IMG/VR virus record: IMGVR_UViG_3300011423_000008
Location: 7,760 to 71,759 of that record
Length of the DNA: 64,000 nucleotides
Origin: a virus
Taxonomy: Duplodnaviria > Caudoviricetes
Strand: one strand, 5' to 3'
Positions 42,482-52,416 of the stretch are shown one piece after another. The stretch's first letter is position 1. The number at the start of each line of letters is the position of its first letter. The position numbers and the translations under genes were made by a program. Below the pieces are notes generated by a model, which was not told where the DNA came from, ran no database searches, and saw nothing but the letters and a program-made list of their open reading frames with translations.

Positions 42482-42547
42482 AGCTATATCTGATACTTGC
42501 AATCAGCACGCTAATTTACGAAATTAGACTAGGTGCTTACATATAGC
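42482..42547 (-). tRNA. trnT: tRNA-Thr(CGT), D-arm truncated
   Basis: GCTATAT/ATATAGC; CTAAT-TTCGTAA-ATTAG; CTGAT-TGCAAGT-ATCAG; only 13 nt in the D region. Confidence 0.7.
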
Positions 42548-42729
42548 ATGTTGATAGGAGCGACAAAATTAATTTTTAAATCTAAACTAGGAATTTCCAT
42601 AATCCAAATATCGGCGCGTTTAATTAATTTATATTCAGAATCATTTATTTGTTTAATTAATCTATCAATAATATCAGCAGTAAGTCGCGCTTCTCTAAAA
42701 GTTTTACCGGTAATATGTAATTCCTTCAT
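42529..42729 (-). CDS. hypothetical protein
   Basis: ATG ORF. Confidence 0.5.
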   Translation of the reverse strand: MKELHITGKTFREARLTADIIDRLIKQINDSEYKLIKRADIWIMEIPSLDLKINFVAPINMLYVST

Positions 42730-42735
42730 ATAATT

Positions 42736-42818
42736 AGCCGTCTATCGGACTCGCACCGATGTTGGGATTTCTCCGTCAGTTTACAAAACTGGTCCTGTCG
42801 CTTCTGAGGCAAGACGGC
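42736..42818 (-). tRNA. trnT: tRNA-Thr(TGT) with long variable arm
   Basis: Loop TT-TGT-AA; G1-C72, C2-G71; V arm GGA-GAAA-TCC. Confidence 0.75.
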
Positions 42819-42826
42819 ATTAAATT

Positions 42827-42899
42827 TGACTCCGTAGGGACTTGCGCCCTCCTGTTTCGTTTAAGAGACGAATCCATCGGCTATCTATGGGTCGGAGCC
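42827..42899 (-). tRNA. trnK: tRNA-Lys(CTT)
   Basis: Cloverleaf; loop CT-CTT-AA. Confidence 0.9.
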
Positions 42900-42965
42900 A
42901 GTGTTTTATGGATGTAAATTTTCTAAATTTTTAATTTCTGAAGTAGTTTTCGCGACTTCCTTCTT

Positions 42966-43196
42966 TTATTTGTTAATTTCCGCCGCGACTTCATAAAGGC
43001 CAACCGCGCCCGCGCCGACAAGACAACCGGTAACAGCTACCGCGCCACTAAATACTCCTAAATACAAAGGCCATATAATTGCACCTAATCCAATAGCAAT
43101 TATTGGCAAATAATGATTTTGAATTTTAGGAAAACCTTTAACAATACCTACAATGATATTAATTAAAGCCGATACTAATAATGCATTTGGGTCCAT
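42966..43196 (-). CDS. phage holin-like protein
   Basis: Three hydrophobic segments; YLPIIAIGLG...GAGAVGLYE. Confidence 0.7.
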   Translation of the reverse strand: MDPNALLVSALINIIVGIVKGFPKIQNHYLPIIAIGLGAIIWPLYLGVFSGAVAVTGCLVGAGAVGLYEVAAEINK

Positions 43197-43213
43197 ATTT
43201 TTATTTTTAAATT

Positions 43214-43288
43214 TGTTCTCGGTGGGATTCGAACCTACATTATCCAGTTATGCGCTATCTCTTTAGGAAAGAGTGCCAATACGAGAAC
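43214..43288 (-). tRNA. trnR: tRNA-Arg(CCT), D-armless with D-loop-like V arm
   Basis: GTTCTCG/CGAGAAC; 7-nt connector; loop TT-CCT-AA; V region with AACTGGATA loop; TTCGAAT. Confidence 0.7.
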
Positions 43289-43411
43289 GATCATTTTTCT
43301 ATTAAAATTCCATTATCAAAATAAAGTTCAGGCACGCCTTTTTCATTAGGCCCTAAAGGACGATTCAGAGCAACACAACCAACAAGTCCAATAAGGCAAG
43401 CCGCCCACAAA

Positions 43412-43918
43412 CTAAATCTTCCAATAAATACAAGACGCAATTTCATTTCTAGTTAAATAAACTATCCGCCCGTTTTGCGGTTCTATAAATCCCATTCTAA
43501 CATCGCCCCCCTCTTTATACAAGAAGAAATTAATAGCGTGCCCTCGATTTGTAGATTCTTGAATATAAAAGAATTCCCCGATAGCTAATTGGTAATCATT
43601 TAATGAGTTTAAATCGCTCGCGACTTCTTGAGCCCCTAATGAAAAGTTATCACAATCAAAAGATTCTAGTTTATATTTTTTATTATAAAACTTTGACGAT
43701 AAATAGTTTACGTAAACAGTTTTGATCCAATGTTTGGTTGGTAAATAGTATGTTTTGTCGGAGATAACCGAACCATTCGAAGGGTGAACCCCCACGGTAA
43801 CATAAATATCTTCTATTTGAATCGTGCCATCCGTTTCGGGCGCGACGTAAGATGTAGAATCAATAGTTTTACAACCAATTACCAAACATAAAAAGAAAGC
43901 AATAATTATTGAGCGCAT
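43412..43918 (-). CDS. lipoprotein with papain/transglutaminase-like catalytic motifs
   Basis: LVIGC lipobox; FDCDNFS and GHAIN. Confidence 0.65.
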   Translation of the reverse strand: MRSIIIAFFLCLVIGCKTIDSTSYVAPETDGTIQIEDIYVTVGVHPSNGSVISDKTYYLPTKHWIKTVYVNYLSSKFYNKKYKLESFDCDNFSLGAQEVASDLNSLNDYQLAIGEFFYIQESTNRGHAINFFLYKEGGDVRMGFIEPQNGRIVYLTRNEIASCIYWKI

Positions 43919-43926
43919 TTGTTATA

Positions 43927-43933
43927 ATTACAC
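43927..43933 (-). promoter_or_regulatory. putative late promoter motif
   Basis: GTGTAAT 8 nt before ATG. Confidence 0.6.
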
Positions 43934-44037
43934 TTAGTTTTCTATAATCATGATTCGATCCTCGCTGGCCCCCGATCTTTTAGGCTCGGGCGCGAGCCAA
44001 AGAAATATAATACCAAACAATAGAATAATAATCAAAA

Positions 44038-44114
44038 TGGTAGCCACGGTAGGATTCCCACCTACATACAATCGTTTCGAAGACGATGACCTTAATAAAT
44101 TAGGTGACGCGGCC
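44038..44114 (-). tRNA. trnR: tRNA-Arg(TCG)
   Basis: Cloverleaf, encoded CCA; loop CT-TCG-AA. Confidence 0.85.
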
Positions 44115-44129
44115 ATAAATTAATAATAC

Positions 44130-50615: not shown

Positions 50616-50632
50616 AAATTTATGTATTCTTA

Positions 50633-50639
50633 ATTACAT
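50633..50639 (-). promoter_or_regulatory. putative late promoter motif (variant)
   Basis: ATGTAAT. Confidence 0.4.
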
Positions 50640-50674
50640 TTAAACTTGGCAAAAGTGAATTTTTATTTTTAAAA

Positions 50675-50757
50675 TCGGCATAGAAAGACTTGCACTTTCA
50701 AGGCTCACCGCTTTTGAGGCAGGCCGGTCTGCTTAATTCCCGGTTAACCATACGCCG
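50675..50757 (-). tRNA. trnL: tRNA-Leu(CAA), short V region and enlarged D region
   Basis: CGGCGTA/TATGCCG + A; loop CT-CAA-AA; D hairpin CCGG/CCGG. Confidence 0.8.
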
Positions 50758-50763
50758 TTAAAA

Positions 50764-50840
50764 TGGTGTCTCCAGCAAGACTCGCACTTGCAACTCTCGT
50801 GTTAAAAGCACGATACTCTAACTAATTGAGTTATGGAGAC
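50764..50840 (-). tRNA. trnK: tRNA-Lys(TTT)
   Basis: Cloverleaf, CCA; loop CT-TTT-AA. Confidence 0.9.
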
Positions 50841-50878
50841 GTAAAATTTAATTTTAATAAAGACGGACATTCTGATTC

Positions 50879-51826
50879 TTAAGTGGGTAATAAAGGAAAT
50901 AAACCAGTAGTACTAATAATAAGATCGTCTATTGCCGTAACGCTAGTTAAAGCCGGTCCCCCGTGAGAATCGCATCGACCCAAACGAATAACTCTAATTT
51001 GGCTTGGAAGTCCGCCAATAGTTATTGATAATTCTAGTCCAGATTGCAACATAGTCCCGGTATCATATACGCGGGCATAAAATTTATCTCCCGATGCCGC
51101 TAAACATGTAACCCAATACGCTCTCCCTGTTACTATAGGAATACTTCCTGAAACGCCAACATTTGAATGAGCGGAAAGAACTTGTCCATTGGTTCTTAAT
51201 TGCAAAACTCCGAATTGTCCATTTTGCATATCCATTTCAATTTGATCAATAGAAGCAAAATTACCGCCCCCTTCATCATTACTACCAAAAGTCATAAAGC
51301 AACCCAAAGAAACTCTATCATAGGTTGGAGTAAAAGGCAGTCGAATTGTATTTAATTGACCGTTTTGGAATCTTAACGCGTTTACTCCGGTATCAGTAAA
51401 CCCCGTCCCATTAATTGAAATACCGCCGAACAGTCTTCCTTCACCTTCTGTTCCCAAAACAATTGTAGAACCACTTGCCCCAGAAGTAATTACCCAAGGA
51501 TCACTTGTAATATTTCCAAACGCACTATTTTGTAAAAACCCGCTTGTGACAGGTCCAGACGAAGCAAAATCCATATTTAAATAATAATTTACTGGTAAAT
51601 AAGAAATCGAAACACCGCTAGTAGTAAAAAAATGTCCAGTTAAAACAGTATCTAAAATAGAAAAATATTTCTTTCTAACTTCATCGGAATATTTTCTTCT
51701 TTGGTTTGCTGTCCAATTACCGTAATAACCCGACCCCTCTAATTGAAAAGTTGTCAAATCTAAGCCGCTTCTAGGTAGCTGATGCAATCGATTGCCAAAA
51801 TTTGAATAATTACCAGTTAGATACAT
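50879..51826 (-). CDS. beta-sandwich (ConA/LamG-like) putative virion protein
   Basis: Beta-rich C-terminal domain ending TAIDDLIIST; late motif upstream. Confidence 0.5.
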   Translation of the reverse strand: MYLTGNYSNFGNRLHQLPRSGLDLTTFQLEGSGYYGNWTANQRRKYSDEVRKKYFSILDTVLTGHFFTTSGVSISYLPVNYYLNMDFASSGPVTSGFLQNSAFGNITSDPWVITSGASGSTIVLGTEGEGRLFGGISINGTGFTDTGVNALRFQNGQLNTIRLPFTPTYDRVSLGCFMTFGSNDEGGGNFASIDQIEMDMQNGQFGVLQLRTNGQVLSAHSNVGVSGSIPIVTGRAYWVTCLAASGDKFYARVYDTGTMLQSGLELSITIGGLPSQIRVIRLGRCDSHGGPALTSVTAIDDLIISTTGLFPLLPT

Positions 51827-51837
51827 ATTTGATATTA

Positions 51838-51844
51838 ATTACAC
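51838..51844 (-). promoter_or_regulatory. putative late promoter motif
   Basis: GTGTAAT 11 nt before ATG. Confidence 0.6.
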
Positions 51845-52192
51845 TGAATTATTAGATTTCTTTTCTAAGTCTAACTGTGCGTGCAATTTTCTATGGCAAT
51901 TTGCACATAAAACATCACATTTAGCTATTTCTGCTTCGATTTTCTCATCGCTGAAAAATTTAGCCATTTTACTTACGTCTTTTATTTTTTGAGCCGGGTC
52001 GCGATGATGAAAATCCAAACAACAAAAATCGTTCTCGCCACATTTTATACAGAACAAAATATTTTTATATTTGATTATAAATGCTTCTTTCCGAGTTTGT
52101 TTTCGTATTTTAGCTTTGGTTTTATATGCGACTTTGTGTTTTTTATAATATTCGCGAAACCATTTGTTGTAATTTTCTTTGTTACGTGGCAT
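51839..52192 (-). CDS. HNH endonuclease
   Basis: CIKCGE...LDFHHRDP..K...KCDVLCANCHRKLH. Confidence 0.9.
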   Translation of the reverse strand: MPRNKENYNKWFREYYKKHKVAYKTKAKIRKQTRKEAFIIKYKNILFCIKCGENDFCCLDFHHRDPAQKIKDVSKMAKFFSDEKIEAEIAKCDVLCANCHRKLHAQLDLEKKSNNSV

Positions 52193-52267
52193 TGGTGAGG
52201 GATGCGAGTAACGCTCTCGCTAATTCAGATTGGAAGTCTGACATGTATCTGTCAACATCTATCCCCC
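52193..52267 (-). tRNA. trnG: tRNA-Gly(TCC)
   Basis: TCAGA-CTTCCAA-TCTGA; CCA. Confidence 0.85.
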
Positions 52268-52273
52268 AAAATT

Positions 52274-52346
52274 TGGACCAGCAGGGTAACGCTCCCTGTT
52301 CTATACATTGCAAGTGTATTGTGTTAACTTTTAGCACTACAAGCCC
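52274..52346 (-). tRNA. trnA: tRNA-Ala(TGC)
   Basis: G3-U70, A73; loop CT-TGC-AA. Confidence 0.85.
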
Positions 52347-52348
52347 TT

Positions 52349-52416
52349 CAGGTTGTGTGAGACTCGCACTCACCAAGACAAGTTTTGGAGACTCGTCACC
52401 GCCTTGCGGACAACCT
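52349..52416 (-). tRNA. trnW: tRNA-Trp(CCA), mini D arm and 7-bp anticodon stem
   Basis: AGGTTGT/ACAACCT + G; CCGC-AAG-GCGG; GACGAGT-CTCCAAA-ACTTGTC. Confidence 0.8.

Follow-up and report, generated by a model that had tools for sequence, protein, structure and literature searches.

Can a phage tRNA with a strongly reduced D arm still serve bacterial translation? The question is raised by two genes, a tRNA-Trp(CCA) and a tRNA-Thr(CGT), that lie in a phage tRNA array. In textbooks, reduced D arms figure as oddities of animal mitochondria and tRNA-Pyl, both of which have co-adapted partner proteins. The array is part of a stretch of 64,000 nucleotides (hereafter, the window) that spans bases 7760-71759 of the 71.8-kb IMG/VR virus record IMGVR_UViG_3300011423_000008, a record with an estimated completeness of ~55%. 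An original prediction, made from the letters of the window, had located both genes, had described their D arms as miniaturized, and had argued for selection rather than decay. From the comparison with homologues reported here, we conclude that both are probably genuine phage tRNA genes with a reduced D arm under purifying selection, most likely working elongator tRNAs.

52349..52416, minus strand: tRNA-Trp(CCA) with a compact core, 68 nt; from the lowest-energy fold and a six-copy comparison
42482..42547, minus strand: tRNA-Thr(CGT) with its D arm replaced, 66 nt; from a short-D scan and a four-copy comparison

Structure of the two genes

Read from 52416 to 52349, the Trp(CCA) gene divides into AGGTTGT, CCGC-AAG-GCGG, T, GACGAGT, CTCCAAA, ACTTGTC, TTG, GTGAG, TGCGAGT, CTCAC, ACAACCT, and G. 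A 7-bp acceptor (52416-52410 with 52356-52350) is followed directly, without the linker at positions 8 and 9, by the D hairpin CCGC-AAG-GCGG (52409-52399), which has 4 bp and an AAG triloop. A single U at 52398 connects this hairpin to a 7-bp anticodon stem (52397-52391 with 52383-52377), whose loop CTCCAAA (52390-52384) carries the anticodon at 52388-52386. There follow a 3-nt variable loop, TTG (52376-52374), a T arm (52373-52357) with a 5-bp stem and the loop TGCGAGT (52368-52362), and the discriminator G at 52349; the CCA end is not encoded in the window copy. ARAGORN in its default mode calls a tRNA-Trp at 52348-52417, and the lowest-energy fold computed with ViennaRNA is exactly this mini cloverleaf, at -24.6 kcal/mol and with 59% of the ensemble.

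The Thr(CGT) gene reads, from 42547 to 42482, GCTATAT, GTAAGCACCTAGT, CTAAT, TTCGTAA, ATTAG, CGTG, CTGAT, TGCAAGT, ATCAG, ATATAGC, and T. Between its acceptor (42547-42541 with 42489-42483) and its anticodon stem (42527-42523 with 42515-42511), the D arm is replaced by the 13 nt of GTAAGCACCTAGT (42540-42528). The anticodon sits at 42520-42518 within the loop TTCGTAA (42522-42516), and the variable region CGTG (42510-42507) leads to the T arm (42506-42490; loop TGCAAGT at 42501-42495) and to a discriminator U at 42482. All 17 stem pairs are Watson-Crick. The gene received no call from default ARAGORN, and the mitochondrial mode called the site only on the opposite strand, as "Arg(acg)." We rejected this plus-strand call and take the minus strand as correct because the whole array is on the minus strand and because a U-G pair in the homologue of a related phage (contig L012) would become C-A on the plus strand.

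How often would such structures arise by chance? We scanned both strands of the window for a short-D frame consisting of a 7-bp acceptor, a D region of 9-15 nt, a 5-bp stem, a 7-nt loop with U33 and R37, a further 3-5 nt, and a 5-bp T stem with a 6-7 nt loop. The matches were exactly the Trp(CCA) and Thr(CGT) sites, as compared to a mean of 0.05 matches per window over 20 Markov-resampled windows. Sequence, fold, and scan thus bear out the two genes, at their predicted positions, with shrunken D arms. The complete pairing of the acceptor, anticodon, and T stems that had been claimed for both is likewise present, in Thr as the 17 Watson-Crick pairs and in Trp as the frame of the lowest-energy fold.

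Conservation of the Trp(CCA) gene

We found relatives of the phage by portal and terminase similarity and then examined their contigs for tRNAs; in addition, we ran pattern scans for the Trp gene in which both stems were free to vary. This yielded six copies: those of the window, of L012, of a 136.8-kb IMG/VR contig (G001, with loci L015, L026, and L043, where the gene was read as locus L043), and of three metagenome contigs (L033, L037, and L038). A pattern scan of 185,579 prokaryote species genomes found no mini Trp gene, and at L016-L018, L019-L024, most of L025-L036, and Salegentibacter L049 the scans gave chance matches only. A "SeC(tca)" call on L038 proved to be a miscalled Met(CAT)-like gene, so that no link to a UGA suppressor exists there.

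In the six copies, every one of the 138 pair cells (23 pairs) is paired. Both sides have changed in 8 of the 23 pairs; the acceptor accounts for 3 of these, the anticodon stem for 1, and the T stem for 4. When the partners were slid by one to three columns as a control, pairing fell to 38-51%. The differences between copies are confined to the acceptor stem, the T stem, and one anticodon-stem pair, while the D hairpin, the connector, the rest of the anticodon stem, the variable loop, and every other loop are invariant. A core of 44 nt is near-invariant, with a single compensated pair varying.

The degree of conservation stands out against that of the rest of the array. L012, whose portal protein is 73% identical to that of the window phage, shares the order of the array and carries the same mini Trp gene, which agrees at 67 of 68 positions; identity is 50-88% for the other 22 orthologous tRNA pairs and ~67-75% for coding DNA. 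The Trp gene is thus the best-conserved tRNA of the array in this comparison. Relative to G001, it is 93% identical, as compared to 52-77% for the other shared tRNAs. In L037, about half of the bases in the acceptor and T stems are changed relative to the window, always with compensation, while the 44 core bases show 0 differences. These comparisons indicate that the Trp core is constrained much more tightly than ordinary tRNAs, whatever share horizontal transfer had.

Such transfer would be an alternative source of the similarity: a small mobile tRNA cassette could have moved recently between arrays, without any strong constraint. The same core does occur in arrays of different gene order, Met-Trp-Tyr in G001, L033, and L037 versus Gly-Trp-Ala in the window; no portal or terminase homologue was detected in G001; and homing endonuclease genes are abundant in the array. 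The comparison with L037 speaks against it, since neutral drift that changed about half of the stem bases would not have spared the core. We consider recent transfer instead of constraint an unlikely account, albeit one with some weight. Transfer and strong constraint can both hold, and the transfer scenario concerns the history of the gene rather than its function.

The position of the gene in the array is informative as well. In arrays that cover nearly all amino acids, no Trp tRNA besides Trp(CCA) is present. Its slot in the window and L012 is beside Gly(GCC) and Ala(TGC); the Trp genes that contigs L014 and L039 have in this slot, beside Ala(TGC) and Gly, measure 74 and 73 nt and have ordinary D arms. 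GCCA is encoded at the 3′ end in four of the six copies; the exceptions are the window and L012, where the next tRNA begins 2 nt later.

The Trp slot is structurally restless in other relatives, with a 92-nt Trp gene with a long variable arm at L013:5486-5577 (minus strand) and a 72-nt form with G1-C72 and an irregular D region at L048:19329-19400 (minus strand). We also observed Met(CAT) genes that have, as their D region, a short hairpin set directly on the acceptor, GGT-CAAGGA-ACC at L013:1913-1980 (minus strand) and GGTC-TAGC-GGCC at L043:7410-7480 (minus strand, in G001). Judging by this layout, they may form a third class of compact-D tRNA in these phages.

The Thr family and its D region

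For the Thr gene we compared four copies: the window CGT gene and three relatives from two phages, namely the CGT gene of L012 and a CGT and a TGT gene of L047. The latter locus shares an 85-kb contig with L013, a contig with a terminase 76% identical to that of the window phage. The orthologous Thr(CGT) genes of L012 and L047 are 66 and 65 nt long, and in all three phages the gene is placed between Thr(TGT) and Thr(GGT). L047 also has, directly upstream of its Thr(CGT), a D-arm-less Thr(TGT) paralogue (L047:15547-15611, minus strand) with a 6-nt T loop, and the D segment of this paralogue, GTAAGCACCTAGT, is identical to the 13-nt D segment of the window Thr(CGT). The sequences indicate that in L047 the Thr scaffold was duplicated and switched its anticodon within the Thr box.

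Across the four copies, 98.5% of the pair cells are paired, the sole exception being a U-U loop-closing pair in the L047 TGT copy. Compensated pairs number 10 of 17 (10-11 when 17-19 pairs are taken). A D-region motif, G-W-AAG..CCTAGT, is conserved in all four. Within the 13-14 nt of this region no stem of at least 3 bp is found, and a 2-bp stem (G8-C, W9-W) around an AAGC/AAGY loop is compatible with all four sequences: the G-C at position 8 is invariant, and position 9 with the base before CCTAGT forms U-A in two copies and A-U in the other two. Tentatively, the Thr D region would hold a 2-bp stem capped by AAGY (AAGC in the window), which refines the original prediction.

G001 has a normal 73-nt Thr(CGT) adjoining Thr(GGT). 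Because of this gene, the unrooted comparison is consistent with the mini Thr form being derived within the clade of the window phage, L012, and L013. A pattern search of IMG/VR with the Thr D region gave zero matches. A "Thr(cgt)" at positions 107-181 of L014 was a poor call with many mismatches and was left unused.

Since compensatory changes recur across homologues, the helices of both families are kept by compensatory substitution, which is a signature of selection and not of decay. The search for homologues had been set beforehand as a check on the claim of selection, with random degeneration as the contrary outcome. Such degeneration was seen in neither family, and the claim held up in both (Trp, n = 6, 100% paired, 8 compensated pairs; Thr, n = 4, 98.5%, 10 compensated pairs).

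Identity bases and anticodon loops

The AAG and TGC loop motifs that had been predicted for both genes are present, as are the named identity bases, C2-G71 for Thr and G73 for Trp. The bacterial tRNA-Trp identity set comprises G73, A1-U72, G2-C71, G3-C70, and C34, C35, and A36, with G4-C69, G5-C68, and A9 as minor elements (PMC9976931). The window gene has A1-U72, G2-C71, G3-C70, and G73, and the major set is invariant in all six copies, except that G2-C71 is G2-U71 in two. For bacterial tRNA-Thr, the set is G1-C72, C2-G71, G35, and U36 (PMC9976931). The window gene has both of these acceptor pairs, and all four elements are invariant in the four Thr copies; G4-C69 and G5-C68 are not kept and are A-U and U-A in three copies. 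Both genes and all eight homologues furthermore share the general cloverleaf frame of a 7-bp acceptor, a 5-bp T stem, a 7-nt anticodon loop with U33 and a purine at position 37, and an unpaired discriminator.

Decay, decoding, or another role

Several observations weigh against working tRNAs. The Rfam tRNA covariance model RF00005 (gathering threshold, 29 bits) has no match with E <= 10 at the Trp or the Thr site, in a 19-kb search and with each gene alone, and it does match 14-20 other tRNAs of the array. In the Trp gene, no change occurs in the D hairpin or in the two extra anticodon-stem pairs, which thus receive no support from covariation; for this reason, it is thermodynamics alone that argues for pairing inside the invariant core. 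The Trp copies lack A9, G4-C69, and G5-C68, with pairs 4-69 and 5-68 being A-U or U-A and covarying, and the two G2-U71 copies depart from the major set. The window Thr(CGT) has a GC content of 36%, which makes it the most AT-rich tRNA of the array, and its cloverleaf (-9.6 kcal/mol) is predicted to be less stable than a competing fold (-15.4 kcal/mol). Its T loop has 7 nt, as compared to 6 nt in the other three Thr copies. It is also dispensable in principle, given that the array has a Thr(TGT) and that ACG, at 8.7 per 1000, is used less than any other Thr codon. Finally, the same genome contains tRNA look-alikes with 6-nt anticodon loops or large inserts, which makes a non-decoding use plausible.

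In the competing fold, the D region pairs with the variable region and the 5′ strand of the T stem, and CUAGU pairs with the 3′ strand of the anticodon stem. We rejected it as a conserved structure because L012 cannot form it. The window copy is the weakest member of the Thr family. It is also set apart by 188 nt (window 42548-42735) that abut its 5′ end and separate it from Thr(TGT); they are absent in L012 and L047, where the two genes abut. This stretch contains a putative 66-codon open reading frame (42529-42729, minus strand), the TAG stop of which falls inside the Thr(CGT) D segment.

Might the two genes be decaying pseudogenes, i.e., normal tRNAs that drifted after a partial deletion of the D arm? 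The AT richness and competing fold of the window Thr copy, the variable T-loop length among the Thr copies, the insertion found in the window phage only, and the lack of an Rfam match for either gene would all suit such decay. It is contradicted by the pairing, as only 1 of 206 stem cells is unpaired in 10 sequences from at least 7 contigs, with 8 and 10 compensated pairs in the two families; at the coding divergence between the window and L012, drift would have broken the stems. The rank of Trp as the best-conserved tRNA of the array points the same way. Decay is therefore very improbable: by these sequence comparisons it appears essentially excluded for both families, and it is thinkable only for the window's own Thr copy.

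A different alternative accepts selection and drops decoding. The genes could encode tRNA-shaped RNAs that act as decoys or sponges for host tRNA-cleaving defense nucleases, that titrate synthetases or modification enzymes, or that punctuate the processing of a polycistronic transcript. Phage tRNAs are known to counter tRNA-targeting defenses (PMC10264068, PMC11555353, PMC11464382). Moreover, a Trp core that is near-frozen across phages whose other tRNAs are ~58% alike goes beyond the usual demands of decoding and would suit recognition by a specific protein. The look-alikes mentioned above fit this alternative too. A decoy, however, need not keep the features that these genes keep: perfect 7-nt anticodon loops with U33 and R37, conserved anticodons with a Thr switch that stays within the Thr box, invariant synthetase identity bases, and, for Trp, the position of the sole Trp tRNA of near-complete arrays in the slot of a normal Trp gene. 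An anti-nuclease tRNA that also decodes would belong with the working elongator tRNAs that we favor. We hence regard a purely non-decoding role as rather doubtful. Reading of UGA by a D-arm-altered Trp tRNA of the Hirsh type, or a reassignment of stop codons, was considered as well and is unsupported, as the long structural genes are open under table 11.

The tRNA array and its surroundings

The array that contains both genes and the immediate neighbors of each are as follows.

39041..52500, minus strand: tRNA array with both mini genes, ~27 tRNA-like genes on a single strand with HNH endonuclease genes scattered among them
52426..52500, minus strand: tRNA-Gly(GCC), canonical shape, 9 nt upstream of Trp(CCA); used as a conservation baseline, 80% identical to its L012 orthologue
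52274..52346, minus strand: tRNA-Ala(TGC), beginning 2 nt past the Trp discriminator in the same polycistronic block; 78% identical to its L012 orthologue
42401..42471, minus strand: tRNA-Thr(GGT), 71 nt with a normal D arm, 10 nt downstream of Thr(CGT), with which it has G1-C72, C2-G71, and U73 in common
42736..42818, minus strand: tRNA-Thr(TGT), 83 nt with a long variable arm, upstream of Thr(CGT)

The array is flanked by a large terminase gene (36101-37972, plus strand) and by an ERCC4 nuclease and portal (52918-55863, plus strand). The exact portal protein of the window is present also on a 213-kb assembly contig, and the phage is therefore a large one. The number of tRNAs in the array depends on the tool: default ARAGORN gives 12, Rfam gives 10 at the gathering threshold and up to ~17 with relaxed thresholds, and ARAGORN in mitochondrial mode gives ~27 on the minus strand. 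No match was obtained in a megablast search of the array against GenBank phages, nor any result in a terminase scan of IMG/VR, and the available flanks of the IMG/VR portal relatives L009-L011 contain no tRNAs.

The loops of the array tRNAs share an unusual signature. About 22 of the 27 have an A-G motif in the D loop (e.g., AATAGTA and AAAGTTA) together with an NGC T loop (e.g., TGCGAGT, GGCAGAA, and CGCGATA), in place of GG and TTC. Within the array, GG with TTC is kept only by Arg(GCG) at 41961-42036 and Asn(GTT) at 49852-49944 (minus strand). Judged from these loops, it seems that A18 and G55 have, in a coupled change, replaced the G18-Psi55 elbow contact. The signature is found too in L012, in L014, and in the unrelated-looking phage G001 (L043, L044).

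Other array members are irregular in different ways. Long variable arms or inserts occur in Thr(TGT) at 42736-42818 (83 nt), Met(CAT) at 49541-49624 (84 nt), and Asn(GTT) at 49852-49944 (91-93 nt), all on the minus strand; the L012 orthologue of Thr(TGT) is a plain 72 nt, and the long Asn form is common to the window and L012. For tRNA-like genes at 44627-44704, 49628-49700, and 50072-50143 (minus strand), ARAGORN reads 6-nt or irregular anticodon loops, with anticodons given as two or four bases. These three may be non-decoding tRNA look-alikes. In the wider family, the terminase homologue of one relative (L046:5387-8506, plus strand; 1039 amino acids, 71% identical) carries an intein with a LAGLIDADG endonuclease domain, as do several further terminase homologues among those listed.

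A proposed route from gene to tRNA

If both genes encode working elongator tRNAs, as we favor, they would be transcribed within polycistronic tRNA blocks and excised by RNase P with trimming of the 3′ end, and in the window phage the CCA end would be added by the host enzyme. A phage-encoded CCA-adding enzyme or TrpRS was not found in the 72 kb, a negative of little weight given a record that is ~55% complete. Charging would fall to the host TrpRS and ThrRS, because the main bacterial identity elements are in the acceptor end and the anticodon, both of which are intact.

The L-shape of the Trp tRNA could be kept by compensation. With the 4-bp D hairpin stacked on the acceptor, the anticodon/D-arm branch would regain its length through the 7-bp anticodon stem and the 3-nt variable loop, such that the 4-bp hairpin and the 7-bp stem approximate the stacked layers of a normal D stem, the 26-44 pair, and a 5-bp stem. 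The 3-nt variable loop would suit the narrow core. In Thr, the D arm would give way to the segment of 13-14 nt, which may consist of a 2-bp stem capped by an AAGY loop and followed by CTAGT. The AAG loop of both genes would supply an A18-G19 to meet G55-C56 of the TGC T loop, an elbow contact that appears common to most tRNAs of the array.

Why would a phage keep such a form? One proposal is that the compact core and the A18/G55 elbow are a phage adaptation, in which bacterial translation uses Trp and Thr tRNAs that are tRNA-Pyl-like or D-armless, and in which these tRNAs are poor substrates for host tRNA-directed defense nucleases, or independent of factors that rely on the D and T loops, while still being chargeable and able to decode. 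We put this forward as a speculation that is more probably wrong than right by a wide measure. By analogy with the defense-countering phage tRNAs cited above, escape from defense nucleases is a reasonable idea for the reason behind the compact core.

Comparison with known systems

A literature search aimed at D-arm reduction or an A18/G55 contact in phage tRNAs found nothing relevant. The architecture is known from tRNA-Pyl and animal mitochondria; what appears to be new is that it occurs in phage arrays, in conserved families whose Trp and Thr identity is that of ordinary bacterial tRNAs. Should these tRNAs be charged and take part in decoding, compact-core tRNAs would be acceptable to the ordinary TrpRS, ThrRS, EF-Tu, RNase P, and ribosomes of bacteria, and tRNA engineering would gain small scaffolds of natural origin. 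Given the near-frozen 44-nt core of Trp, one may ask why the phage keeps the compact form, for which defense escape is one candidate. Both genes go unnoticed by covariance-model tRNA finders, so that counts of phage tRNAs are likely too low.

Neither gene has the canonical class I core, which is defined by linker bases 8-9, a D stem of 3-4 bp, a D loop of 7-11 nt with G18G19, T54-Psi55-C56, a 5-bp anticodon stem, and a variable loop of 4-5 nt. The Trp gene deviates by its missing linker, 3-nt D loop, 7-bp anticodon stem, 3-nt variable loop, and T loop TGCGAGT, and the Thr gene by the 13-14 nt in place of the D arm and a T loop of TGCAAGT or TGCRAT.

The original prediction had likened these truncations to tRNA-Pyl and mitochondrial tRNAs, and for the Trp layout this likeness holds feature by feature (PMC7609411). 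In the tRNA-Pyl of Methanomethylophilus alvus, the linker is missing, the D loop has 4 nt, the anticodon stem 6 bp, and the variable loop 3 nt (PMC7609411). Similarly, in the Trp gene the D stem follows the acceptor stem without an intervening nucleotide, the variable loop has 3 nt, the D loop is small (3 nt), and the anticodon stem is long (7 bp); like tRNA-Pyl, the gene lacks G18G19 and T-Psi-C and has a normal 7/5 acceptor/T branch. All Trp copies have the features of the tRNA-Pyl compact core (0-1 linker base, a D loop of at most 5 nt, an anticodon stem of at least 6 bp, and a 3-nt variable loop). In decoding, they differ: tRNA-Pyl reads UAG with a CUA anticodon, is served by PylRS, and has G1-C72, whereas all Trp copies have the anticodon CCA, with the acceptor and discriminator of bacterial tRNA-Trp. 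The Trp gene also sits in a phage tRNA array with no PylRS implied, and its AAG D loop fits the A18-G19 found array-wide. The sequence thus marks it as like tRNA-Pyl in shape and not as a member of tRNA-Pyl.

Mammalian mitochondrial tRNA-Ser(UCN) ("type I") shares with the Trp gene a short acceptor-D linker, a small D loop, an extended anticodon stem, and a 3-nt variable loop (PMC7609411). The mitochondrial tRNA retains the L-shape (PMC7609411), which the phage Trp tRNA would be expected to have too. Unlike the Trp gene, tRNA-Ser(UCN) keeps G18, G19, T-Psi-C, and one linker base, and it works with a dedicated mitochondrial translation apparatus, as opposed to the bacterial one that would use the phage tRNA.

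The Thr gene resembles the D-armless metazoan mitochondrial tRNAs such as mt-tRNA-Ser(AGY), in which the D arm has given way to a short, mostly unpaired segment with the other stems intact (PMC9427863, PMC7609411). Unlike these, it belongs to a phage and would act in the bacterial cytoplasm, it has the AAG/CCTAGT motif and possibly a 2-bp stem, and its identity is Thr rather than Ser. The D-armless mitochondrial tRNAs coevolved with adapted synthetases and EF-Tu, whereas no such adapted partner is known for the phage Thr.

In other respects, both genes are like ordinary phage tRNAs, which occur in arrays of large lytic phages with homing endonucleases in between and whose deviations from host tRNAs can be adaptive (PMC10264068, PMC11555353, PMC11464382). 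The phage tRNAs that escape host defenses are canonical cloverleaves with changes in the anticodon loop (PMC10264068, PMC11555353, PMC11464382), whereas in the two genes described here it is the architecture of the core that is remodeled.

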